Shown piece after piece: positions 8,410-31,146 of a DNA stretch of 43,631 nucleotides. The notes beneath the pieces are model-generated. The model saw nothing but the letters and a program-made list of their open reading frames with translations, was not told the DNA's origin and did not search any database. Source of the stretch: an uncultured Gammaproteobacteria bacterium (GTDB lineage: Bacteria; Patescibacteriota; Microgenomatia; UBA8517); NCBI GenBank assembly GCA_964502815.1, contig CAZCXV010000006.1, forward strand, positions 1 through 43,631, written 5' to 3'. Positions within the stretch are counted from its first letter, which is position 1; every line of letters begins with the position of its first letter. The translations under genes were made by a program, and so were the position numbers.

Positions 8410-10866
8410 TTATCTCCAACTGTTAAACCAATAATAGGAGTTGTCTAACCAAACTGGTATTTTTATACCTGTCCAGTGGGGAAAAAAGTAGACAAAAAAG
8501 ATTAGTCCTAATGCGCCATAAACCACAATATACTTAGGATACTTTCTCAGAGAGAAACCTGTTGCAAGTGCCAAAAATGGAACTGCAGGCAAGTAGTGGT
8601 ACAAAAACATAATTCTCGGAGACAGAGCCCAAGGAAGAAAGAGGGTGAAGTAAGAAAAAACAACAAAACCAAGTCTTTTGTTTTTTGCAATTAAGGTTTC
8701 GTACAAAACAGTAAACACCGCCACTACTCCACTCCAAAAGATAAACGGATTTCCAAAGGCATAAATATTGGCTACCATATTATTTACTACTCCACCGGTA
8801 TACAGCCAAATTGGCCTAATTAGAAATGGCCAAGAAAGAGGATTGGAAGTGTATGGATGAGTTGCTTTCAAATTGGTGTGATACCACCACATTTGTTTTT
8901 GCACTTCAATGAATTGACCCCAAGTGTGCCCCATCAAAAAAAATGGCAGATAGCTTAATAAATACACCGCAATAGGAAGTACTAAAAACCAAGCATAACT
9001 TAGAACCGGCGACGGGAATATTTCTTTGCCCTTTCTTTTAAAAACGAAGTGAGAAACAGCCAAAACCGGCAGTACCCACATTGTTGTCCATTTGGAAGAA
9101 GCCGCCAGACCAAGAAAGAGAGCCGACAAAAAGGTGTTGTATCTGCCTTTCTTTTTAATGAAAAAATAAATAGCCCCCAAGGCAAATACTAAAAAGTAGC
9201 TGTCATTCATCCCAATTCTACTCATTACTAAAGCCAAACCATCCAGTGAAAAAACGCCAGCTGACAGCAAGGCTGCAGCTTCATCCTTAAAAATTTCTTT
9301 TGCCAAAAGATAGACCAATAGGACAATAATTGTTCCAGCAATTGCTTCCGGCAACCTCCAAGCAAAGGAGTTCTCCCCAAGTATTTTCATTGATGTCCAC
9401 ATAGCAAGTTTAGCTAGTGGTGGATGTGTCCATTCATACGCGAATCCCTCGGGAGGAGTATTCCACCACTCCCAAGCTTTGGGGTCGTTATGGAGTAAAG
9501 TCCTGGCCGTAAAAGCATGGTAAACCTCGTCAAAATATTCTTTGGGAGGACTTGAGAGAAAAGCAGTTCTAGAAACAAAAGCAAAAGTAAGAATTGCAAG
9601 TAAGATTAGTTTTGTCTTTTTGGCAGTCAGACTAAAGCCAACCTTAGGAAAGAAAAACTCTTTTTCTTCTCTGTTTTCTTTGTCTAAGATATTTTTCAAC
9701 TTGGCAAATATTTTTTTAGAAATTGGGAAAATAGTGAGAAATAAAAATACAACACTCAATAAAGAAATTGCCGACGCAATTTCGGTCGTAAAAATTGCTT
9801 TAAAATTTTGGGTTATCCAAACAAAAGCATATCTAAGATTTAAGACGTAAACTAAAGACAACCCTAAATAAGGAATTATTAATGTCGGCAAGTAGGCCAA
9901 AGATATCGCAATTGGAGCAAGAGCCGGTAACAGATGCCTTTCGTGCATTCTAGTTAAAAATACAAAACTAGATAGAAGAACTATTCCCAATAACCTATAG
10001 TCAAACAACTTCTCTTCCTTCTTTTTATTCAAAATTGTCACTATGGTTGTAGCCAGGAAAAGCAAAATTCCAACAATTTGCAAAGGCACTATTCCCAGAT
10101 TATCAGGCTTCCACATACCAACTACTCCCCATAAATTAAAGGCGTTGACACTTGTATATGGGTATTGGTTTGCAGTTTGAGACAGCCTAGCTAAAATGAA
10201 CACAGGCAAATTCTTACCGTCTGCAAAAGGAATAAAGCCAGCTATAAACAAACTTGCAGAGATGGCTATATAAGTAAATATCTTTTCTAGTCTCCATTTT
10301 CTTGAAATCATTAAAAAGAAAATTAAGACCGCAATAAACCCAGCTTGAGGTTTAATTAAGGCGCCAAAAGCCAAGAAAACTGCAGAAAAGCCAAAGTTAG
10401 TCTGCAAAAAATAAACTGCCAGAAGCGAAAAAAGAGCCGTCAGTGAATCAACTTGACCCCATAAAGAAGAATTGCCAAAGATGGCTGGGTTAAAAACATA
10501 TAGGCAAGAAGACACTAGTCCCCAATTCTCGCCTTTCTCTTTTTTAACAATTTTGTAAATAAAATAGCCTGTAAGAATATCGGCCAGTATTGCCGGCAAC
10601 TTATACAAAATTACACTATCAATCTGGACTACCTCCCTTATCTTTCCCAACAACCAAAGGATATATAAATAACCCGGAAGATAATCAGACCAAGAATCAT
10701 AGAATCTGGCAAAACCTATATTAACCAAGTTATTACTCCAAGCAATAAAAGTATTGTGATCCAAGTAAAGAGTGCCAAAGTTAGCCATTAGTAGTCTGGA
10801 TGCAAAACCAGTTAGTAGAATCAAGAAGATGTTAGTAGTTATTTTTGGAAATTTAAAAGATTTCAT
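8410..10866 (-). CDS. Fused double GT-C glycosyltransferase: N-terminal GT-C module + C-terminal protein O-mannosyltransferase (PMT/GT39-like)
   Basis: N-half has DYLPGYLY, KLPAILAD, WGQVDS and RMHERH. C-half has YFDEVYH, EWTHPPLAK, SRIGMND and HPYTSNPLSWP. Start placed at ATG 10866, which overlaps the upstream stop. Confidence 0.82.
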   Translation of the reverse strand: MKSFKFPKITTNIFLILLTGFASRLLMANFGTLYLDHNTFIAWSNNLVNIGFARFYDSWSDYLPGYLYILWLLGKIREVVQIDSVILYKLPAILADILTGYFIYKIVKKEKGENWGLVSSCLYVFNPAIFGNSSLWGQVDSLTALFSLLAVYFLQTNFGFSAVFLAFGALIKPQAGFIAVLIFFLMISRKWRLEKIFTYIAISASLFIAGFIPFADGKNLPVFILARLSQTANQYPYTSVNAFNLWGVVGMWKPDNLGIVPLQIVGILLFLATTIVTILNKKKEEKLFDYRLLGIVLLSSFVFLTRMHERHLLPALAPIAISLAYLPTLIIPYLGLSLVYVLNLRYAFVWITQNFKAIFTTEIASAISLLSVVFLFLTIFPISKKIFAKLKNILDKENREEKEFFFPKVGFSLTAKKTKLILLAILTFAFVSRTAFLSSPPKEYFDEVYHAFTARTLLHNDPKAWEWWNTPPEGFAYEWTHPPLAKLAMWTSMKILGENSFAWRLPEAIAGTIIVLLVYLLAKEIFKDEAAALLSAGVFSLDGLALVMSRIGMNDSYFLVFALGAIYFFIKKKGRYNTFLSALFLGLAASSKWTTMWVLPVLAVSHFVFKRKGKEIFPSPVLSYAWFLVLPIAVYLLSYLPFFLMGHTWGQFIEVQKQMWWYHTNLKATHPYTSNPLSWPFLIRPIWLYTGGVVNNMVANIYAFGNPFIFWSGVVAVFTVLYETLIAKNKRLGFVVFSYFTLFLPWALSPRIMFLYHYLPAVPFLALATGFSLRKYPKYIVVYGALGLIFFVYFFPHWTGIKIPVWLDNSYYWFNSWR

Positions 10867-12757
10867 ATATTGAGATTCCTTGCCAATTATATATTTTTTT
10901 AACTCCTGATATAGAATCCAGTTTAGACTCTGCCTCGGGGAAGTGTAACTTTTCCTCATGGCCGAGATAAACATATCGAGCACTATATTTTTTGCTTGTT
11001 TTAGCAACAGTTTCATTATCAGCTTGTTTATACAATCTCTCCATATCGTTTACCCTAGAAAATACATTATCAACCCCAATATTATAGCCGTGGGAATATG
11101 GCCAGGTAATATAAGAGATTACTCTTAGTCTTCCACCTATGTCTGCAACTGGACTGTGAATGGTTGGCATTTCTATAAATACAGATTTATTCTGGGTATT
11201 TTCTCTTATCCATAGACCAACACGATACTCACTTTCGGAGTAAGCAACATTTGTGTTTAGATACCCCCAAGCCAAATTAAGTATTGAGGTAAAAATGCTA
11301 GAAACAACGAAAATAAAAAAAAGGGGAACCGCTAACCATTTGGGAAGTCTAGAAATGAAAACCGTTGACAATATGGCCAAGAAAATCACCAAATAATAAA
11401 AAAACTTAAACATATCTCCATCGTAGATGGTAAATTTCATCAAAAACGGTAAACTAAATAAAACAGCCGTCAATAAAAAACAACAAACCAAAGCTATGTT
11501 CTTGTAAACTTTTTTTGTTGTAATTGAAAAAGTTGCAAACAACAAACCCAAACTGAAATTCAAGACAATAAACTTCAAGTACCAATTGAGAGAGTGCTCC
11601 TGCCAAGCTCCCCACTTAAAAGTCTGGCCGAAAACTTCCATAATATTTCTGGTTCCAATTTGTGGATTTGGAAAAATTAGATAAAGAGACAATAGAGGAG
11701 AAAAACACAGGAACAAAAAAACTGCTGATTCTTTTAAATTTATTTTCTTTGTTACAAGATGTAAGAATGTAGAAAATAAAATCACCAAAACTCCGACCAC
11801 TAGCCCAAAGAGTTGAAATTTGTAAAGTGAAGCTATGATTATCCCGACAATAAGTGCAAACTTGCGGTCTTTGCCCTCGAAGAATTTAAATACAAACAAT
11901 GAGATGCTGGCTACCGCCGGCAGGCCAAACATCATTGGTCTGTTTTGCATAAAATAGTTTGAGACAGGAACCATTTGCAAGATACCGTTGTATTCATAGC
12001 CATAACCGTCTCTGACCAAGAGTGTCAAAGCATCACCTTTTGTAAGTAAATCTTTGAAAAAGTCGACAAAACCCAAGTTGCCAAAAAACACCGCAATAAT
12101 ACCAGCTATCAATGACAACCAGCTATTTTTCGTTAGCTGGATTGATAAATTGTAAATAGACAAGAAAAAAAGAGCCGCAAAAAAGGAATTGGTAAATGCC
12201 AATACTTTCGGGAAAAAATTACCAAAAAATGTATTTAGTATTGCTGAATGAAAATCAGCAAAATAATAATAGGCCAGCGGCACACCACTAAAATACGGTG
12301 CTTGAGGAGGAAAGTTTCCCTGGCTTATAGATTCAATTATTGACATATGCATCGCAGTATCCTGCCAGTTAGGGCCACTCATAACAAAGTGTCCATTAAG
12401 AAATGTAAATATTGCGGGATAAAGAGAAATGAAAAACAGTAGATAAACAACCATCATGAAAACTAATGCAACCAAATGTCTCCTTAAATTACAAAGTTCA
12501 ATCTTTTTGGAAAAAATTACCAAGATTGAGCCAATAATAACAATCACCAACCCCACAACTAACGTTAAACGGTTAAAGCCAAATAACGATCCCAATAAAT
12601 ATGATAAGAAACAGGAAAATATTACACTAATAAGGAAGTAAAGCTGAATTTTGATGATTCCAGGCAGTTTTGGGCAAAAAACCTCAACAAACAAAAAACC
12701 GGGTAAAAGGAATGCGTATCCAAAACCAAGCATTAAAAATATATAATTAGCAAACAT
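10853..12757 (-). CDS. Polytopic membrane protein, probable GT-C-fold glycosyltransferase
   Basis: NWQDTAMHMSIIESISQGNFPPQAPYF..PLAYYYF loop, many TMs, and a soluble C-terminal domain (WIRENT...YVYLGHEE). Confidence 0.65.
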   Translation of the reverse strand: MFANYIFLMLGFGYAFLLPGFLFVEVFCPKLPGIIKIQLYFLISVIFSCFLSYLLGSLFGFNRLTLVVGLVIVIIGSILVIFSKKIELCNLRRHLVALVFMMVVYLLFFISLYPAIFTFLNGHFVMSGPNWQDTAMHMSIIESISQGNFPPQAPYFSGVPLAYYYFADFHSAILNTFFGNFFPKVLAFTNSFFAALFFLSIYNLSIQLTKNSWLSLIAGIIAVFFGNLGFVDFFKDLLTKGDALTLLVRDGYGYEYNGILQMVPVSNYFMQNRPMMFGLPAVASISLFVFKFFEGKDRKFALIVGIIIASLYKFQLFGLVVGVLVILFSTFLHLVTKKINLKESAVFLFLCFSPLLSLYLIFPNPQIGTRNIMEVFGQTFKWGAWQEHSLNWYLKFIVLNFSLGLLFATFSITTKKVYKNIALVCCFLLTAVLFSLPFLMKFTIYDGDMFKFFYYLVIFLAILSTVFISRLPKWLAVPLFFIFVVSSIFTSILNLAWGYLNTNVAYSESEYRVGLWIRENTQNKSVFIEMPTIHSPVADIGGRLRVISYITWPYSHGYNIGVDNVFSRVNDMERLYKQADNETVAKTSKKYSARYVYLGHEEKLHFPEAESKLDSISGVKKIYNWQGISIYEIF

Positions 12758-15051: not shown

Positions 15052-16893
15052 ATGACAGATTCCATTTTACAAGACAACTTAAACAAAGAACAGCTGGAGG
15101 CAGTCAGATATGAAGGTGGGCCTCTTTTAATACTGGCTGGAGCAGGCAGTGGCAAGACCAGAGTCTTAACTCATAGGGCAGCTTATTTAATACTTGAAAA
15201 AGCTATTAAGCCTGAAAACATTCTCCTTTCAACTTTTACCAATAAAGCAGCTAGAGAGATGAAAGAAAGAATTGATCACCTTCTAGCAAGTTCAGGCAAG
15301 AAGTTTGACGCCAGTCCTTTTGCTGGGACATTTCATTCTTTTTGCGTCAGACTCCTTCGAATCGATGGCTTAAAGATTGGTATTGACAAATCTTTTGTCA
15401 TTTACGATGAAAACGACAAGAAAGAATCAGTAAAAGAAATTCTGGAGAAGCACAACTATTCAACCGACTCTTACAATCCAGGCTCAATTGCCAACCTAAT
15501 CTCCCAAGCCAAAAACCAAATGCTTACCCCTTTGCAATACTCTGAGTTTGCCAAGTCAGAATTTGATGAAGTAGTTTTTAAGGTTTACTCAGAGTACGAA
15601 ACCTACTTAAAAGATGCCCAAGCTTTGGACTTTGATGATTTACTTACTAAAGCAGTCAAACTTTTAGTTGAATCAAAAGAAACACTTGCCAAGTGGCAAA
15701 ATAATTTCAGGCATATTTTTGTTGACGAATGGCAAGATACCAACAAAATTCAATATAAATTGACAAAACTTCTAGTTGGCAAAAGCGGCCACCTAACAGT
15801 CGTCGGGGATGCGGCACAGAGTATTTATTCATGGCGCGGAGCTGACTACCGAAACATCAATAACTTAATGAAGGATTATCCAGACATTAAGGTCGTTAAC
15901 CTTGAACAAAACTACCGTTCAACTCAAGTAATTCTTGATGCAGCCAATTCAATAATCAAGAAAAACACCAATCATCCAGTTTTGAACTTGTGGACCGAAA
16001 ACGGTAAAGGAGAAAGAATAAAAATGTATCGGGCGAGAAATGGCCTTGATGAGGCAAGCTATGTAATTGATGAAATTAAGTCACTAAAAAGGCAAGGTTT
16101 TAGCTTAAGCGATTTTGCAGTGCTTTATAGAACTAATGCTCAATCCCGCGTCCTTGAAGAAGCAATGCTTCACATAGGCATACCATATACGCTTGTTGGT
16201 GGAACCAGATTCTATGATCGAAAAGAAATAAAAGACATTATTTGCTACCTAAGACTAATTGCTAACCCTAAAGATAGAGTCAGTATAAAAAGGTCAGAAA
16301 AAATTGGCATCAAAAGACATCAGAAGTTTTTAGAATTCAGGGATATCCTTGGGAGTTTGGAAAAATACACCACTCTGGAACTTCTGGATGAAGTAGTTAA
16401 AAGAATTGATTTTTTGAAACTATTTGAAAAGGAAACAGAAGAAAACATCCAGCGCCTTGAAAACATAAAGGAACTAAGGTCGGTTGCAACCGAATTTCCA
16501 GTTCTCCAGGAGTTTTTAGAAAACGTTAGCTTGGTTGAGGCAGAATCAGTGTCAGATAAATACGCCAAAGATAAAGTCACCTTAATGACTCTACATGCAG
16601 CTAAGGGACTTGAGTTTCCAGTGGTTTTCATTGTCGGCATGGAAGAGGGCATTTTCCCTCACTCAAGAAGCCTTTTTGATTCAAGTCAGTTAGAGGAAGA
16701 AAGAAGACTGGCATACGTTGGCATTACCCGAGCCAAAGAAATTCTTTTTTTAACTTTTGCAGGTAATAGACTATTTTTTGGTCAAAAAACTTCAAACCCC
16801 CCTTCAAGATTTTTAATAGATATCCCTGCTGATTTGATACAATCAGAAGATGGGGCCTATAGGGATAGCTCCGCCTATGATTCATCATGGTAA
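15052..16893 (+). CDS. pcrA: ATP-dependent DNA helicase PcrA/UvrD family
   Basis: AGAGSGKT, TFTNKAA, VDEWQDTN, LEQNYRS, YRTNAQSR, TLHAAKGLEF and EEERRLAYVGITRA. Short 2B region and no C-terminal domain. Start is 15052 or 15037. Confidence 0.9.
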   Translation: MTDSILQDNLNKEQLEAVRYEGGPLLILAGAGSGKTRVLTHRAAYLILEKAIKPENILLSTFTNKAAREMKERIDHLLASSGKKFDASPFAGTFHSFCVRLLRIDGLKIGIDKSFVIYDENDKKESVKEILEKHNYSTDSYNPGSIANLISQAKNQMLTPLQYSEFAKSEFDEVVFKVYSEYETYLKDAQALDFDDLLTKAVKLLVESKETLAKWQNNFRHIFVDEWQDTNKIQYKLTKLLVGKSGHLTVVGDAAQSIYSWRGADYRNINNLMKDYPDIKVVNLEQNYRSTQVILDAANSIIKKNTNHPVLNLWTENGKGERIKMYRARNGLDEASYVIDEIKSLKRQGFSLSDFAVLYRTNAQSRVLEEAMLHIGIPYTLVGGTRFYDRKEIKDIICYLRLIANPKDRVSIKRSEKIGIKRHQKFLEFRDILGSLEKYTTLELLDEVVKRIDFLKLFEKETEENIQRLENIKELRSVATEFPVLQEFLENVSLVEAESVSDKYAKDKVTLMTLHAAKGLEFPVVFIVGMEEGIFPHSRSLFDSSQLEEERRLAYVGITRAKEILFLTFAGNRLFFGQKTSNPPSRFLIDIPADLIQSEDGAYRDSSAYDSSW

Positions 16894-17819
16894 GTTCAAA
16901 GACAAACACACATCCACTTCAATCCCCCCAATGGGCGCAATTTAGACAAAAGTGGGGCAATGAAGTTGTCAAGACTCCATATGGCTTTGTAAATCTACAC
17001 AAAGTCCCATATCTAAATCTAAAGATTGGAACCTTCATCAGGGGTCCAAAACCAACCAAAGAGATGATTTCTTGGTTAACTGACTTTGGCAAGAAAAACA
17101 AAGTTATTTTTATCAAACTCGAGCCTTTCATTAAACAAGAGGAAAAACTCACCAGCAATCTAAAAACATGGGGTCTAGTTTCTGGCAAAACTCTTTTTAC
17201 TCCCTCCACTTTTTGGATTGACTTAACAAAGTCAGAAGAAGAACTATTAAAATCCTTTTCTCAAAAAACCAGATATAACATTAGACTAGCCCAAAGAAAT
17301 GGAGTTGAAGTTGTTGAAAATTCAACTAATGAAGGTTTTGAAAAGTTTTTAGATCTTCATTTTGAAACTACTAAAAGGCAAGGCTTTTTCAGCCACAGCA
17401 AAAAATATCACCGCTTGCTTTGGGAAATACTTAGAAAAGCAAACATTGCTCATATTTTGCAAGCCAAATACAAAGGAGAAGTCTTGGTTTTTTGGATGCT
17501 TTTTAGCTATGATGGTTTTCTTTACTATCCATATGGGGCTTCCTCGGACAAATATAAAAATGTCATGGCAAATAACCTAATGATGTGGGAAGCAATTAGG
17601 TTTGGTAAAAAGCACAATTTGCAAACCTTTGATCTTTGGGGCAGGGAGGAAGGCAAGGGATTCACTAAATTTAAGGAAGGTTACAATCCCCAAGTAGTGT
17701 ACTTTTTAGGAACTTGGGATTTGGTGATAAATAAACCAATATATTATGTTTATCGAATTGCTGAGTTTTTGAGATGGAAAATATTAAGATTAAAAATCAA
17801 ATTAAAGCCTTCCACATAA
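16887..17819 (+). CDS. FemAB/FemX-family peptidoglycan aminoacyltransferase
   Basis: HPLQSPQWAQFR, IRGP, IDLTKSEEELL, KTRYNIRLA, YYPYGAS, LMMWEAI and FKEGY motifs. Confidence 0.88.
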   Translation: MVSSKTNTHPLQSPQWAQFRQKWGNEVVKTPYGFVNLHKVPYLNLKIGTFIRGPKPTKEMISWLTDFGKKNKVIFIKLEPFIKQEEKLTSNLKTWGLVSGKTLFTPSTFWIDLTKSEEELLKSFSQKTRYNIRLAQRNGVEVVENSTNEGFEKFLDLHFETTKRQGFFSHSKKYHRLLWEILRKANIAHILQAKYKGEVLVFWMLFSYDGFLYYPYGASSDKYKNVMANNLMMWEAIRFGKKHNLQTFDLWGREEGKGFTKFKEGYNPQVVYFLGTWDLVINKPIYYVYRIAEFLRWKILRLKIKLKPST

Positions 17820-18488: not shown

Positions 18489-19313
18489 ATGAATACAGAC
18501 ATCAGACAGACTTCAGAATATGCCAAATATATGCAATCTCTTGGTTGGGCTGTAAAAAAAATAAACAATATTTACTGCTATATCAAAAAACTTCCCCTTT
18601 TAGGTAATTTTGTAAAGATTCAACGAACTGCAGGGTCTGACCCTGCAGAATTATGGGATATTCTCCAAAAACACAAACCATTTCAGATAGTTTTAGAACC
18701 AATGACAGAAATAGACATGACAGGTTTTGAGCTAGCCAAATCCCCTTACCTGCCTTCCAAAACCATTGAAATTGATTTAAGAAAGTCAGAACAAAAACTC
18801 CTTTTAGATATGCATTCCAAAACGAGATATAACATTAAAGTCGCCCAGAAAAATGATTTAACAATCGAAATTTCAAAAGATATTGTTTCTTTTGTCAACT
18901 TGTGGAGCAGACAAAGAGAGGGATTGTTGACTTTTTTGTACTCACAAAAAAATGATATTGGTAAGTTCTTCAAGGCATTTAACCAGAAGGCTGATTTACT
19001 AATTGCAAAAAAAGATGACAAATTACTGGCTGGCATACTGATGCCCAGAACTAACGACAAAGCCTATTACATGTATGCTGCATCAACTACTTTGGGCAAA
19101 AAACTTCATGCACCAACACTTCTAACTTGGGAGGCAATTAAACTTGCCAAAAAAAGAGGTTGCAAAGTGTTTGATTTTGAGGGCATATATGACCACAGAT
19201 TTCCAATAAAATCCTGGGAAGGCTTTTCAAAGTTTAAAAGAACTTTTGGTGGAAAAAAAGTTGAATATCCAGGTTGTTTTACTAAGACAAACTTTTTAAA
19301 CATATTTAAATGA
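18489..19313 (+). CDS. Second FemAB-family/GNAT-fold aminoacyltransferase
   Basis: DIRQTSEYA, IDLRKSEQKLL, KTRYNIKVA, YYMYAAS, LTWEAI, FDFEGI and GFSKFKRTFGG motifs. Confidence 0.85.
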   Translation: MNTDIRQTSEYAKYMQSLGWAVKKINNIYCYIKKLPLLGNFVKIQRTAGSDPAELWDILQKHKPFQIVLEPMTEIDMTGFELAKSPYLPSKTIEIDLRKSEQKLLLDMHSKTRYNIKVAQKNDLTIEISKDIVSFVNLWSRQREGLLTFLYSQKNDIGKFFKAFNQKADLLIAKKDDKLLAGILMPRTNDKAYYMYAASTTLGKKLHAPTLLTWEAIKLAKKRGCKVFDFEGIYDHRFPIKSWEGFSKFKRTFGGKKVEYPGCFTKTNFLNIFK

Positions 19314-24855: not shown

Positions 24856-24913
24856 CAACAATCAAGATTGAATTCGACAACTATTTTTAGTTTAGAGAGG
24901 CTATAATACAAGC

Positions 24914-26338: not shown

Positions 26339-26396
26339 GCAAAGCTTGACACCAGCTAAGTACAACTGGAGTAAAATAGTAGTATAATTCCTCGCC

Positions 26397-27875
26397 ATGA
26401 CTAAAAAAGAAAAACTGATTCAAAGAACCCTAGAGATCCTGCCTGGCTTTGTCTCCTGGAACCTAATTTTATTTCCCTACTGGGGAATCCTGGTCATGCC
26501 AAATGTGGTTGCCTATACCATTCTCCTGTTTAATCTCTACTGGTTTTACCAATCCTTAAATGTCGCCATTTCAGCAACTGTCTCCCATTTTAGAGTCCAA
26601 GCTTCACAGAAGTTTGACTGGGCAGGAGAATTAAAAGCTTTTCCTGATTGCCAAAAAGTCCACCATTTTATTATTGTTCCTTTTGTAAATGAACCCTTAC
26701 ACATTCTGGAAAGGACTCTTGACTCACTTGCCGCTCAAACCTTAGACAAAAAGCAAATGACCGTTGTTTTAGCTACTGAAGCCAGAGTTCCAGACGAGCA
26801 AAGACTGCCAAAAATAAATGCCTTAAAGAGAAAATACAGCAAAAGTTTTGCTAATCTTTTTGTAACTGCCCACTGGCTAACTCCAGAGGAAGTTAGGGGC
26901 AAGGCTTCCAATGAAAGATATGCCGCCATTGAAACCAAAAAAGAGTTTATTGATAAAAACAAAGTTGATATAGACTATGCAGTTGTAACCAGCTGTGACT
27001 CTGACCACAAATTTCATCCAAACCATTTTGCCTGCCTGACATATAAATTTCTTGACAACCCCAATAGATACAAACACTTCTGGCAACCAATTGTGATGTT
27101 TTACAACAATATCTGGGAACTGCCTGCAATTACCCGCGTGCCAAACACTTTAATGTCCATTTGGAATCTTTCACTGGTTCCCAGAAAAGACAGGCTAATA
27201 AATGCTCAAAATTACTCCCTATCTTTTAAGCTTCTGCACCAGGCTGGCTATTGGGATGCAGACAAAATTCCAGAAGATTGGGGAATATTTTTTAAAGCCC
27301 TGTATGAAACAGGTGGAGGAATTGAAGTTGAGCCAATTTACCTGCCTCTTCTTGCTGATGCCGCAGAGTCAGATACGCTTTGGAAAACACTGACCAATCA
27401 ATACGAACAATTAAAAAGATGGGCTTATGGAGCTTCAGACATTCCCTGGATGATTAAGTTTTACTTTACCAAAAAGGGGGTAAATTTCTGGGATAAAACC
27501 ACTAGATTATGGTATGCCATGTGGTCTCATTTTATGTGGCCAGTTAATTGGTTTTTAGTGACTATAGGTTTGACACTTCCTTCCATCTTAAACCCAGCCT
27601 TTGGCAGAACAGCTCTTGGGTACATGGTACCAAAAATCTCGTCCTTGGTTCTTACTATCTCACTTCTTTTCTTGGTGATTACTTTATTTATTGACAATGT
27701 CTACAAGCCTCCAAAGCCAGAAAAGTTTTCCAGAATGAGAAAAATTCTCATTCCTCTTGAATTTATTTTAATGCCCATAGCAGGATTTTTCTTTTCAGCC
27801 CTTCCCGGTCTGGATGCCCATACCAGACTAATGCTTGGAAAATATATAGAGTACAGAGTTACTGAGAAAGTTTAA
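26397..27875 (+). CDS. GT2-family membrane glycosyltransferase
   Basis: GKASNE, DSD (DxD), IPEDW and QLKRWAYG (QxxRW) motifs, with flanking TMs. Confidence 0.85.
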   Translation: MTKKEKLIQRTLEILPGFVSWNLILFPYWGILVMPNVVAYTILLFNLYWFYQSLNVAISATVSHFRVQASQKFDWAGELKAFPDCQKVHHFIIVPFVNEPLHILERTLDSLAAQTLDKKQMTVVLATEARVPDEQRLPKINALKRKYSKSFANLFVTAHWLTPEEVRGKASNERYAAIETKKEFIDKNKVDIDYAVVTSCDSDHKFHPNHFACLTYKFLDNPNRYKHFWQPIVMFYNNIWELPAITRVPNTLMSIWNLSLVPRKDRLINAQNYSLSFKLLHQAGYWDADKIPEDWGIFFKALYETGGGIEVEPIYLPLLADAAESDTLWKTLTNQYEQLKRWAYGASDIPWMIKFYFTKKGVNFWDKTTRLWYAMWSHFMWPVNWFLVTIGLTLPSILNPAFGRTALGYMVPKISSLVLTISLLFLVITLFIDNVYKPPKPEKFSRMRKILIPLEFILMPIAGFFFSALPGLDAHTRLMLGKYIEYRVTEKV

Positions 27876-28039
27876 CTTTTTTATTCTCACTTATTTTAAT
27901 TAACACATCGTCAAATATTATCGCTTCAACATTGCAATAAAATTGATTTTTGTCTTGGCTTTAATATTTGCTGTGCTCCGCCTGATTGAACAAGATAGAA
28001 CCTATTTTACTTCATATACGTCGGTGTATAATTGCCAAA

Positions 28040-28876
28040 ATGGGTTTAATTGAAGCAAAAGTTAATAGTCTACATTTCTACCCAGTTAAATCCTGTGGGG
28101 AAACTGAACTCCAAACTGCACAAGTCACTGAAAAAGGAATTATATACGATAGACATTGGATGTTAGTTGATTCTAATGGTCAATTTTTAAGCCAAAGGGA
28201 TTTTCCAAGAATGTCTTTAATCAAACCGGCTTTATATGAAAACAGGATTGTTATAGCTGCACCAGATGAATCTGCAATTTTAGAATTACCATTAGATAAT
28301 GATGGAGCAAGAAAACGAGTACAGATCTGGAAGGATAACGTAGAAGCAGTTGATGATGGAGATATTGCGGCACAATGGTTCAGTGATGTCTTAAAAACAG
28401 ATTGTCGACTTGTACATTTGCCAGCTGATTCTGTTCGTGAGAAAAAACCTAATTATGGAAGGCTTGAGTTTGCAGATAGTTATTCCTTCTTAATTGCCTC
28501 AGAGGAGTCTTTATCAGATTTGAACCAAAGGATTCAAGCAAATGATGGCCAACCAATTCCAATGAATAGATTTCGTCCCAATATAGTTGTTGGTGGGTGC
28601 GAACCTTATGCAGAAGATGAATGGAAACAAATCGAAATTAATGGAGTGAAGTTTGATGTAGTCAAACCTTGTATTAGGTGTCCTATTCCTCAAATTGACC
28701 AAAGTAGTGCTGTTAAAGGCAAGGAGCCCACAAAAACACTCCTTAGTTACAGAAGAGTTTCGAGAACTGAAGTGATTTTTGCACAAAAAGCAGTTAATCT
28801 TAATCATGGTTCTGTCTCAGTTGGAGATGAGGTAGCAGTTTTAGAACGAAAGGATTCTCCAAAATTTATAAAATAA
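28040..28876 (+). CDS. MOSC-domain protein (MOSC_N + MOSC; mARC/YcbX-N-like), no ferredoxin domain
   Basis: FYPVKSCG, YDRHWMLVD, FLSQR, FADSYSFLIASEESL, MNRFRPNIVV, EDEW and PCIRC (Moco-ligating Cys position). ATG lies 7 nt below TATAAT. Confidence 0.92.
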   Translation: MGLIEAKVNSLHFYPVKSCGETELQTAQVTEKGIIYDRHWMLVDSNGQFLSQRDFPRMSLIKPALYENRIVIAAPDESAILELPLDNDGARKRVQIWKDNVEAVDDGDIAAQWFSDVLKTDCRLVHLPADSVREKKPNYGRLEFADSYSFLIASEESLSDLNQRIQANDGQPIPMNRFRPNIVVGGCEPYAEDEWKQIEINGVKFDVVKPCIRCPIPQIDQSSAVKGKEPTKTLLSYRRVSRTEVIFAQKAVNLNHGSVSVGDEVAVLERKDSPKFIK

Positions 28877-29506
28877 ATGTTAAAAGAAATACTTTACGCT
28901 ACAAATAACCCAGGAAAGATTGCTGAAATTTCAAAATTCTTGGAACACAATGGAATTAGAGTTGTTTCTCCAAAAGATTTAGGCATAGATTTAGATGTTC
29001 CTGAAACTGGATATAGTTTGGGAGAAAACGCTAGGTTAAAAGTAAAGGCATATCTAGAAGTTAGTGGAAGAAGAATCGTCCTAGCTGATGATACTGGATT
29101 GGAAATAGATTCTCTTGATGGAAAACCAGGAATTCATGTAAGAAGATGGAAAGATGGTCAAACTAGAATGGGAGATGAAGAAATAATTGAGTATTGTTTA
29201 GATCAAATGAAGAATGTGGCAAAAGATCAAAGGGGTGCTCAATTTAGAACAGTTGTAGCATTAGCACTTCCTGATGACAATGTCGAAACGTTTGATGGAA
29301 CTTTAAGAGGAGTTATTTTAGAAACACCTGCAGATATAAGAGTGGAGGGTTTTCCATTTGAATCACTATTCTTTGTTCCTGAATGGAATATGTTACTTGG
29401 AGAAATTCACAGTTTGAGCATGGAAGATAAGGGAGATAAGATTATTCACAGAGAAAAAGCACTCCAAAAAGCAATTCCTAGATTAAAACAGTTATTAGGA
29501 GAATAA
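28877..29506 (+). CDS. Ham1/RdgB-family non-canonical purine NTP pyrophosphatase (divergent motifs)
   Basis: ATNNPGK, ETG..ENARLK, LADDTGLEIDSLDGKPG and C-terminal HREKAL. Confidence 0.88.
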   Translation: MLKEILYATNNPGKIAEISKFLEHNGIRVVSPKDLGIDLDVPETGYSLGENARLKVKAYLEVSGRRIVLADDTGLEIDSLDGKPGIHVRRWKDGQTRMGDEEIIEYCLDQMKNVAKDQRGAQFRTVVALALPDDNVETFDGTLRGVILETPADIRVEGFPFESLFFVPEWNMLLGEIHSLSMEDKGDKIIHREKALQKAIPRLKQLLGE

Positions 29507-29643
29507 GGCTTTATATGAACTAAATCTTTCCTTACTCCATCTGGCGGATCATGTTGGAACCTACAACATAAATTAAAGTTCAGTAATAAAAAAAGGGCAC
29601 TGATTTGTTCTTCAAATTCAAACCCATTATACTTAAAGAGTAA

Positions 29644-31146
29644 ATGAACCTTTGGCAAAAAATAACCTCAAAAATCGATACTCCCTCTTGGCTTGAGTGG
29701 CTTTTAGGCACTGTCTTTTTATTTCGAATTCCCTCTTTTTTTGAGCCTTATTGGTATGGAGATGAGACCATTTATCTAACACTGGGTAATGGCATCCGCC
29801 AGGGGTTAACTTTGTACAAAGACCTGCATGACAACAAACCTCCCTTGCTATACTTACTGGCGGCACTTGCTGGCAATATCTTCTGGTTTAAGGTAATTTT
29901 GGCTTTTTGGTCTCTAGTTACTATTTACTTTTTCTGGAAGTTGGTCAATTTTCTTTTTGCAAAAAATATAAAACTACAAAAAATTGCTGTATGGAGCTTT
30001 GCCATTCTTACCACCATTCCACTTCTTGAGGGTAATATCGCCAATGCCGAACTATTTTTCATTGGCCCAACAATTGCCGCCTTTTGGATTCTTCTTGCTA
30101 AAAACACTGATCCCAATCTGACAAGTGGCAGAAAAAACTTATTTCTTTCTGGTCTACTATTTTCTCTGGCTGCGCTTTTCAAAATTCCAGCCGCTTTCGA
30201 TTTGCCGGCAATACTTATTTTTTGGCTAATTACCAAGCCTTTTAATTCAAAAAACTTGCTCGAAACAGCCAAGCAATTTTCAATCGTTATAATTGGTTTT
30301 TTATTGCCAATTGGCTTAACCTTTGTCTGGTACTTTTTTAGAGGCGCACTGCCGGAGTATTTTAGGGCAGTTTTCTTGCAAAACGTGGGTTATTTGTCTT
30401 CCTTTAGGCCAGGAGATATCCAAAAGCCGTTTTTGATAAAGAATTTGCCGCTTATAATAAGAGGTTTGATTGTCATTTTTGGTTTTGTAAGTTTACGTCT
30501 TGCCAGGCGCAAGCTCTCCAGACAATTTATCTTTACGGTCGCCTGGCTTCTAATGACCTTATTTGCTGTAACCCTTTCGGAACGTCCTTATCCTCACTAC
30601 CTTCTCCAATCGGTAGCAAGCATTTCACTTCTTATTGCCATGTTCGTTACCTCAAAAACTATGAATCAACTTTATACCATTATCCCCCTTACTCTAGTAG
30701 TCGCCATCCCAGTTATTTACCATTTCTACGTCTACGCCCCAGTTGGCTACTATACCAGGTTTATTAGTTTTGCCACCAAAACGACCAGCAAGCAAGACTA
30801 TTACAATAGTTTTAATAAAGATACAGCCAGAAACTATAAAATTGCAGAGTTTGTTATTACCTCCACTAAACCCACGGATAGGATTTTTGTTTGGGAAGAT
30901 TCTGCCAACATCTACGCCCTGACAAAAAGGCTCCCACCTATAAAATATGTTGCAGGTTATCACATTGTTGATTTTTCGACTCCCAGAGAAATTGTCGAAA
31001 AGATTAATAATACAAAACCAAAATTAGTTATAATACTACCTAGTTCTAAAAGGTTTCCCCAACTAGAAGGCTTTTTGTCTGGAAATTACTTTTTAGTCTC
31101 TACAATCGATGGAGCCAAAATTTGGCACGTCATTACTACAAAATGA
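29644..31146 (+). CDS. GT-C-fold glycosyltransferase (ArnT/PMT_2-like)
   Basis: WYGDETIY, LYKDLHDNKPP, NAELF and YPHYLLQ; multiple TMs. Confidence 0.8.
   Translation: MNLWQKITSKIDTPSWLEWLLGTVFLFRIPSFFEPYWYGDETIYLTLGNGIRQGLTLYKDLHDNKPPLLYLLAALAGNIFWFKVILAFWSLVTIYFFWKLVNFLFAKNIKLQKIAVWSFAILTTIPLLEGNIANAELFFIGPTIAAFWILLAKNTDPNLTSGRKNLFLSGLLFSLAALFKIPAAFDLPAILIFWLITKPFNSKNLLETAKQFSIVIIGFLLPIGLTFVWYFFRGALPEYFRAVFLQNVGYLSSFRPGDIQKPFLIKNLPLIIRGLIVIFGFVSLRLARRKLSRQFIFTVAWLLMTLFAVTLSERPYPHYLLQSVASISLLIAMFVTSKTMNQLYTIIPLTLVVAIPVIYHFYVYAPVGYYTRFISFATKTTSKQDYYNSFNKDTARNYKIAEFVITSTKPTDRIFVWEDSANIYALTKRLPPIKYVAGYHIVDFSTPREIVEKINNTKPKLVIILPSSKRFPQLEGFLSGNYFLVSTIDGAKIWHVITTK

Follow-up and report, generated by a model that had tools for sequence, protein, structure and literature searches.

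A MOSC-Ham1 gene pair in a Patescibacteria genome without recognised molybdenum cofactor genes: a candidate nucleotide sanitation pair

We describe a pair of abutting genes, one coding for a MOSC protein and the other for a protein of the Ham1/RdgB family, in a 43,631-bp stretch of DNA (the window), which is the complete contig C6 of a small-genome groundwater Patescibacteria of the Microgenomates type (genome G000; 877,699 bp in 25 contigs, with an estimated completeness of 96.75% and contamination of 1%). The MOSC protein appears to keep its active site for the molybdenum cofactor (Moco), and five families of Moco biosynthesis gave no match in the genome. Our tentative reading is that the two proteins form a pair for the sanitation of nucleotides or nucleosides, dependent on Moco supplied from outside. 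The pair itself was found in this genome only, and the evidence is set out below together with the alternatives that it leaves in play.

The two genes and their products

The MOSC reading frame runs from ATG 28040 to the TAA at 28874-28876, and the Ham1 start codon (28877-28879) follows without a gap, as the earlier note on this DNA had reported. A longer MOSC frame could begin at TTG 27986, but the ATG is preferred because homologues start at its position. The note had also assigned one -10 box to both genes, and this holds: a TATAAT hexamer is present at 28027-28032 ahead of the MOSC gene, and none lies ahead of the Ham1 ATG. Although the hexamer is no more frequent in the window than expected (26 observed, 32 expected), its placement is informative: across the genome there are 18, 17 and 16 instances in which TATAAT precedes the ATG of an open reading frame (ORF) of at least 100 codons by 6, 7 and 8 nucleotides (nt), whereas most other spacers between 0 and 39 nt have 0-4 each. 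This peak suggests that the MOSC gene has a leaderless-type promoter of a kind common in G000. The hexamer also stands 6 and 8 nt upstream of the ATG in the two genes that come before MOSC, which code for methionyl-tRNA synthetase (MetRS; box at 24902-24907) and for a protein resembling family 2 glycosyltransferases (GT2-like; box at 26383-26388). Leaderless-type starts thus seem common in this genome, with TATAAT 6-8 nt before the ATG in three consecutive genes. A scan for full sigma-70 promoters gave no plus-strand site upstream of the MOSC gene, and a scan of 27700-29800 gave no terminator-like site; the 'leaderless' passages of PMC12641178 concern YchF, not Patescibacteria promoters. Given the TAAATG junction and a -10 box before the first gene only, coupled expression of the two genes is predicted.

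The first gene codes for 278 residues, in which Pfam recognises MOSC_N (E = 1.3e-30, residues 6-120) and MOSC (E = 1.3e-22, residues 141-265), both over the cut-off, and no additional domain, Fer2 included. The earlier note had described the protein as free of any redox partner domain, and Pfam indeed finds nothing beyond MOSC_N and MOSC. A phmmer search of the PDB matched human mARC1 (E = 2.6e-31), and the AlphaFold model (pLDDT 90.8, pTM 0.89) matched entries 29aj, 7p41 and 6fw2 in Foldseek over the whole length of the mARC1 core (E about 1e-22, TMq 0.87). One conserved cysteine, Cys273 of mARC1, is described as ligating molybdenum in all MOSC proteins (PMC10637980). The CIRC motif of the window protein lies opposite CSRC of mARC1 in the alignment. 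Of its two cysteines, C211 and C214, the second is taken as the equivalent of Cys273 because it is invariant, as is R213, across 27 aligned MOSC homologues. The note's observation that the Moco-ligand cysteine is retained is supported by both results, and the same Arg-Cys pair is kept in 18 of 18 MOSC ORFs from Patescibacteria loci and two metagenome contigs. The 27 homologues come from Moco-proficient phyla as well as from the window protein's own clade, and the 30 columns that are invariant among them are all kept in the window protein. Several of these homologues have been labelled 'uncharacterized protein YcbX' by their sources. Judged by alignment and model, the product of the first gene is a catalytic core of the mARC/YcbX type with its active-site residues intact. 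The relevant passages of PMC10637980 report N-reductive activity for every MOSC protein assayed in vitro and reduction of 6-hydroxylaminopurine (HAP) and N-hydroxylated nucleosides by YcbX, YiiM and mARC; they also state that YcbX works with CysJ and has a [2Fe-2S] ferredoxin domain fused to it, and that all MOSC proteins studied to date are Moco enzymes.

The product of the second gene matches Pfam Ham1p_like (E = 3.9e-40), with residues 5-200 covering profile positions 1-184 of 186, and its PDB matches to Staphylococcus aureus Ham1 and Escherichia coli RdgB reach E values of about 1e-24. Its model (pLDDT 90.2) gave Foldseek TMq values of 0.72-0.80 to 1k7k, 2q16 and 4bnq, RdgB and S. aureus Ham1 being among the targets. 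The protein stays below the NCBIfam equivalog cut-offs for XTP/dITP diphosphatase and TIGR00042 (146.9 bits against 234, and 122.1 against 145.35). Compared with S. aureus Ham1 and E. coli RdgB, GFGYDP is changed to GFPFES, SHR to IHR and PGIYSARY to PGIHVRRW. The earlier note had read these changes as altered specificity motifs. The substitutions are real, but they represent a class-wide form that keeps the Phe and Arg residues: GFP[FY]xS stands in for GFGYDP at 30 of the 36 other Ham1 loci compared from the class and family, and just one of the 36 carries the canonical motifs. The same substitutions are conserved in a large subfamily whose members are as much as 85% identical to the window protein, some being named by their sources as Microgenomates, Shapirobacteria and Collierbacteria. 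Residues F159, H191 and R192, which correspond in the alignment to the F of FGYDP and to the HR of SHR, are invariant in 18 members of this subfamily. F159 and R192 are the equivalents of Phe-149 and Arg-178 of ITPase, given as the main determinants of its base selection (PMC5075207). Because these equivalents are invariant, ordinary specificity for non-canonical purine nucleoside triphosphates (NTPs) is expected of the protein, a shift being possible.

The remaining Ham1 motifs of the class (L112-L141, L005-L012) vary in a similar manner, with PG[VI]xSHRW or PGIHVRRW for PGxYSARY and xNHR for SHR, so that most class Ham1 genes display a lineage-wide variant of the ITPase signature. The nearest Ham1 gene among 40 relatives (L012:1399-2129, genome G017; 56-61% identical) is split over two overlapping ORFs by a frameshift or a sequencing error, and is preceded by a PNPOx-like gene, not by MOSC. 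A defence role of the Kongming type was considered for the window Ham1 and rejected: KomB is distant (E = 0.00066; TMq 0.60-0.67), RdgB is far nearer, and Pfam finds no SIR2-type gene in the window.

Moco supply and the distribution of MOSC genes

In G000, searches for MoCF_biosynth (PF00994), MoaC (PF01967), MoaE (PF02391), Mob_synth_C (PF06463) and MoeA_N (PF03453) returned 0 matches, and control genomes scored with these families. The search for Moco genes consisted of these five families and did not extend to molybdate transport, MoaD, MoeB or MobA. The absence of all five from a genome estimated to be 96.75% complete leaves the cofactor puzzle raised in the earlier note in place. The note's remark on the missing redox partner stands as well, since Pfam searches of G000 for Fer2 and Flavodoxin_1 gave 0 matches. 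A crude motif scan of the same genome found no 4Fe-4S motif (CxxCxxCxxxCP) and no rubredoxin motif, and found one WCGPC thioredoxin motif. With neither Moco synthesis nor an electron carrier found, the MOSC enzyme may be inactive.

The same situation was encountered in other genomes. MOSC genes were found in 0 of 40 close relatives, 4 of 400 genomes of the phylum and 10 of 400 genomes of the class, the samples amounting to about 840 of several thousand Patescibacteria species (G488, flagged as unpublished, enters the class tallies as one of the 400 only). MoaC was absent in 16 of 16 MOSC-bearing Patescibacteria genomes, namely G000, the ten from the class, the four from the phylum and one titled Saccharibacteria, and MoCF_biosynth was absent in all six of the MOSC-bearing genomes tested for it (G000 and five others). 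The one class genome out of 400 in which MoaC was detected, G641 (190 contigs, 3% contamination), is itself MOSC-negative. MoaC was present in 4 of 4 tested genomes from outside Patescibacteria that hold the nearest MOSC homologues. The Moco-less MOSC state recurs in Patescibacteria and is not peculiar to G000. In a Saprospiraceae metagenome-assembled genome of Bacteroidota (L094, 2821-5802), a MOSC gene lies between a ThiF plus Rhodanese (MoeB-like) gene and a MoaC-MoCF_biosynth fusion gene, so that within a Moco-proficient phylum the genome itself links the MOSC family directly to Moco synthesis.

A tree of 81 MOSC proteins, built from all Patescibacteria entries and 46 of 79 loci from other phyla, places the window MOSC with 17 metagenome proteins (SH-aLRT 98), one of which is named by its source as coming from a Patescibacteria group bacterium. 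Its terminal branch (0.30) is below the median (0.59), which speaks against accelerated evolution of the window protein. The other Patescibacteria MOSC proteins are scattered, with a phylum-only clade of seven and single sequences beside those of Chloroflexota or Gammaproteobacteria. As the Patescibacteria label requires at least three changes on the tree, it indicates that MOSC has been acquired several times within the phylum.

A variable slot in a conserved gene cluster

The pair occupies a slot (27876-29643) in an otherwise conserved gene order. The order of GT2-like gene, slot, 500-residue membrane protein and family 4 glycosyltransferase (GT4) is kept in 5 of 5 family relatives searched; in all five the 500-residue protein of the right flank is 47-63% identical and is followed by the GT4 gene, and homologues of the 492-residue protein of the left flank border the slot in relatives G001, G748 and G008. 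The content of the slot differs. In G001, from the same genus, it holds a 424-residue PMT_2-type protein (L142:90-1491), and in G748 an NAD-dependent epimerase/dehydratase on the opposite strand (L145:2980-3959). Contigs of abundant relatives cease matching the window right after 27855, where they have loose ends.

The two genes also differ in composition from their surroundings. The G+C content at third codon positions (GC3) is 0.219 in the MOSC gene and 0.186 in the Ham1 gene (2.5 and 0.5 percentiles), compared with 0.313 +/- 0.044 over 563 ORFs of G000 and with 0.381 and 0.379 in the flanking genes. This unusually low GC3 makes them look like horizontally acquired genes, and the pair as a whole looks like acquired accessory genes in a variable slot of a conserved envelope cluster. 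The best database identities are 68% for MOSC and 85% for Ham1; since they differ, joint transfer is not shown and a shared history is not required.

The features of this region are collected in the table. The earlier note had placed the pair between glycosyltransferase genes. GT4, UbiA and PMT-type genes do lie nearby, but the immediate flanks are not clear glycosyltransferases: the gene upstream has a GT2 match in Pfam that is sub-threshold (E = 0.0047), and the 500-residue membrane protein downstream has no Pfam match. Elsewhere the contig carries two FemAB-family genes (16887-17816 and 18489-19310) and a gene for an 868-residue PMT-type glycosyltransferase (8413-11016), and MurJ, LytR-CpsA-Psr and an M23 peptidase are also encoded in the window; with these genes present, the contig is rich in cell-envelope functions.

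Table. The MOSC-Ham1 pair and its immediate surroundings in the 43,631-bp window
Feature	Position	Strand	Basis
MOSC_N+MOSC gene, 278 residues	28040..28876	+	Pfam, phmmer, alignment, AlphaFold model, Foldseek
Ham1/RdgB-family gene, 209 residues	28877..29506	+	Pfam, PDB matches, subfamily alignment, model
TAAATG junction, MOSC stop abutting Ham1 start	28874..28879	+	sequence; bridged by independent contig
TATAAT -10 box, candidate leaderless-type promoter, 7 nt upstream of MOSC ATG	28027..28032	+	sequence
Upstream spacer, 164 nt, left edge of variable slot	27876..28039	.	ORF map
Downstream spacer, 137 nt, without terminator-like site	29507..29643	.	terminator scan
Conserved left flank, 492-residue membrane protein, weak GT2 match	26397..27875	+	Pfam
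Conserved right flank, 500-residue membrane protein, no Pfam match	29644..31146	+	Pfam

Possible roles of the pair and comparison with known systems

How the sanitation pair might work can be outlined from family membership, which guides what is said here of substrates, of functional coupling and of Moco supply. Both genes would be transcribed as one unit from the leaderless-type -10 box, with Ham1 probably translated by reinitiation at TAAATG. The MOSC protein, if it behaves like its family, would turn N-hydroxylated substrates, for example N6-hydroxy-adenine, N6-hydroxy-adenosine and N4-hydroxy-cytidine, back into the normal bases or nucleosides by reduction. Inosine, xanthosine and HAP-type triphosphates (ITP, XTP and the like) that escape would be cleaved by Ham1 to monophosphates. 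The joint effect would be the cleaning of a nucleotide pool fed by salvage. Mature Moco and electrons would both be required from outside the recognisable gene set, most plausibly from a host or partner cell, because G000 lacks Moco synthesis and the usual small electron carriers. The earlier note was right to name the two families as known defence layers against N-hydroxylated purines (PMC1173102, PMC10637980); in E. coli, RdgB, endonuclease V and a Moco-dependent system are reported to protect from HAP (PMC1173102). Its suggestion that imported bases are sanitised is doubtful: no canonical purine phosphoribosyltransferase was found in G000, where the sole match is a sub-threshold one to Pribosyltran in a 443-residue protein (L148:1288-2616). 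For this reason nucleosides are likelier MOSC substrates than free bases.

The corresponding E. coli genes, ycbX and rdgB, are not known to be linked. A number of results weigh against the sanitation reading, beginning with the missing matches to Moco synthesis, Fer2 and flavodoxin, the missing Fer4 and rubredoxin motifs and the canonical purine phosphoribosyltransferase that was not found in G000. Linkage of the two families elsewhere is a further point. Within 4 kb on either side, a Ham1 gene was found near 0 of 80 MOSC loci (79 from outside Patescibacteria and L075) in a scan of the matches listed, from which close Patescibacteria relatives may be missing. Nor was one found near 4 phylum loci, 12 class loci or 2 close metagenome loci of MOSC, the last two having been located by a DNA pattern for KPCIRCPIPQ and one of them, L098, being readable for only 188 nt downstream. 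The tally over all other MOSC loci is 0 of 97. Conversely, MOSC was found near 0 of 29 other Ham1 loci. The two families do not tend to co-occur either, Ham1 being present in 4 of 10 MOSC-positive genomes and in 173 of the 400 class genomes overall, and no MOSC domain was seen in the 4 longer Ham1 proteins found, which is weak evidence on fusion. The earlier note had named beforehand, as a result that would refute its proposed HAP detoxification module, the confinement of the adjacency to one genome, and in these scans the adjacency occurs in this genome only. Its uniqueness is nevertheless weaker than the counts suggest, because they omit the loci likeliest to hold a second pair, those of the 17 MOSC proteins nearest to the window's and of the Ham1 proteins with 81-85% identity (P0123-P0126).

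Several of these findings speak for the view that the two genes are chance neighbours, that is, unrelated accessory genes that came to rest in one insertion-prone slot of a gene-dense genome. Ham1 would then do house-cleaning of ITP and XTP, and the MOSC protein would act on amidoximes, hydroxylamines, N-oxides or nitrite, or would be an inactive apo-protein nearing loss. We consider this explanation quite possible, and almost as probable as the sanitation reading, which is the most probable of those considered. Besides the single-genome adjacency and the lack of a co-occurrence signal, it is favoured by the different genes that fill the slot in G001 and G748, by the miscellaneous and lineage-specific character of MOSC neighbours in other phyla, and by the searches that detected neither a cofactor pathway nor an electron carrier. 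The difference between the closest Ham1 (85%) and the closest MOSC (68%), whose histories need not be common, points the same way and counts against a sanitation pair. However, the abutting stop and start codons and the single -10 box tie the expression of the two genes together, and both share an extreme GC3 that is unlike that of the flanks. The MOSC gene shows no decay either, with an intact frame, all 30 family-invariant residues kept and a short branch. Finally, a nucleotide pyrophosphatase recurs as a neighbour at other Patescibacteria MOSC loci.

This last point comes from a scan of 52 neighbouring ORFs at 16 other Patescibacteria-type MOSC loci (75 were listed, of which the 16 MOSC genes and 7 distal ORFs were omitted), in which NUDIX neighbours were called by Pfam, a regular expression for the NUDIX box having caught 3 of 5 Pfam-confirmed ones. 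A small NUDIX gene is the nearest same-strand neighbour in 4 of the 16 loci, at gaps of 20, 35, 67 and 464 nt, and these loci represent four different MOSC lineages. Two of the four also have a deoxynucleoside kinase or a deoxycytidine monophosphate (dCMP)/cytidine deaminase beside them. The best NCBIfam matches of the NUDIX partners, all sub-threshold, are MutT, NudG and related NTP pyrophosphatases. In other phyla, NUDIX accounts for 1 of 149 immediate neighbours at 77 MOSC loci, and that one is NudE-like. The difference (4 of 16 against 1 of 77) gives a Fisher p of 0.003, a post hoc value from a small sample, and the binomial chance of four such neighbours in 16 is 2e-4 to 7e-3, given 8-11 NUDIX genes per genome. 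A MutT-like NUDIX protein would be a functional analogue of Ham1 beside MOSC, and the arrangement suggests that MOSC genes of this phylum tend toward genes of the nucleotide pool and of salvage, with Ham1 taking the NUDIX place here. We treat the NUDIX-MOSC link as a lead, not as proof. NUDIX genes are frequent at 8-11 per genome (G000 has 10 matches), the partners are not orthologous and are 22-34% identical to one another, with none reaching an NCBIfam cut-off, and the association was spotted after the neighbours had been scanned and was not predicted; all of this reduces what it can lend to the sanitation reading. In the same set of 16 loci, a 'Putative cyclase' gene (PF04199, of the kynurenine-formamidase/isatin-hydrolase type) adjoins or lies near MOSC in four (L103:1992-2606, L104:104-820, L105:2502-3026 and L109:237-845), and it makes up 0 of the 149 neighbours in other phyla, so that it is a second gene found repeatedly beside MOSC.

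If the MOSC protein is active, it might also work without Moco in Patescibacteria, with the invariant cysteine carrying a persulfide or another metal, for an activity that needs no cofactor or a different one. The absence of MoaC from 16 of 16 MOSC-bearing genomes, and of MoCF_biosynth from the six tested, fits this idea, as does the repeated gain and retention of MOSC, which points to a working function in these cells; molybdenum-independent forms of orphan molybdoproteins have also been proposed (PMC6147048). Yet the window clade retains every residue that does not vary among Moco-proficient relatives, so that nothing in the sequence signals a change of cofactor, and every MOSC protein studied is described as a Moco enzyme (PMC10637980). 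The Bacteroidota MOSC gene, furthermore, sits between MoeB-like and MoaC-MoCF genes. On balance, a Moco-independent MOSC protein seems distinctly unlikely to us. An artefact, whether a chimeric contig or a contaminant contig sorted into the bin of a Patescibacteria genome, might be suspected from the lack of MOSC in 40 close relatives and from the atypical composition of the pair, but it is rejected as scarcely credible, given flanks whose gene order is shared with all 5 of the family relatives searched, core genes on the same contig (MetRS, GroEL/ES, S20 and MurJ), a contamination estimate of 1%, and contigs from other studies that match the window with 0 differences and bridge both the MOSC/Ham1 junction (X12 record 8, 28815-29070) and the GT2/spacer/MOSC side, parts of the window without contig cover in runs X3, X5, X7 and X12 carrying no meaning.

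The sanitation reading can be extended from this genome to the phylum. Patescibacteria might run MOSC enzymes on Moco, or on a Moco-loaded protein, derived from their hosts, and combine them with an NTP pyrophosphatase, be it NUDIX or Ham1, against N-hydroxylated analogues in scavenged nucleosides. We regard this wider proposal as rather doubtful. Moco is a labile cofactor that bacteria are, as a rule, assumed to synthesise for themselves. If the proposal were true, it would be the first Moco transfer between bacteria, and the phylum would possess a lineage-wide sanitation module built repeatedly from non-homologous parts. Taken alone, the MOSC-Ham1 operon is a single-genome event and a minor curiosity. 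The repeated gain of MOSC by Moco-less genomes carries more weight, as it means that Moco passes from one bacterial cell to another or that the MOSC fold can act independently of Moco, and either outcome bears on molybdoenzyme biology and on what ultra-small symbionts take from their hosts. Our literature search, which left subscription journals outside, gave no title or abstract on MOSC or Moco with Patescibacteria or the Candidate Phyla Radiation and none on the MOSC domain with Nudix; no case of bacterium-to-bacterium Moco transfer turned up in it.

Several known systems resemble parts of the arrangement described here. The Ham1 protein shares with RdgB, S. aureus Ham1 and ITPase the full-length Ham1 fold and the N-terminal T-N-K, E, K and DD positions, and differs from RdgB and S. 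aureus Ham1 in that FPFES, IHR and HVRRW replace FGYDP, SHR and YSARY. The MOSC protein has the two-domain core and the molybdenum-ligand cysteine of human mARC1 and plant ARC (PDB 6fw2, 7p41), which likewise have no fused electron-transfer domain. Unlike mARC, however, it lacks an N-terminal membrane anchor and belongs to a genome without a Moco pathway, where no partner of the cytochrome b5 or b5-reductase type was recognised (an HPGG scan gave one match, in a 591-residue ORF). E. coli YcbX has the same MOSC_N plus MOSC core, and N-hydroxylated purines are the expected substrate class; YcbX continues into a C-terminal [2Fe-2S] ferredoxin domain, whereas the window protein ends after the MOSC domain.

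The lack of a Moco pathway has parallels too. Orphan molybdoproteins in organisms without the pathway form a known and unexplained class, made up mostly of the dimethyl sulfoxide reductase (DMSOR) and xanthine oxidase (XO) families (Peng et al. 2018, PMC6147048). The organisms in question likewise have a molybdoenzyme homologue without Moco synthesis and no sequence mark of lost molybdenum binding. MOSC proteins of Patescibacteria are not treated in the passages of that paper on orphans, and here all 16 genomes are orphan. As for an external supply, dietary uptake of Moco has been described in nematodes, in Caenorhabditis elegans and in Haemonchus contortus (PMC7849362, PMC9793310, PMC7619442). 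It offers a precedent for enzymes that are run on the cofactor of another organism, in that case by animals that eat bacteria.

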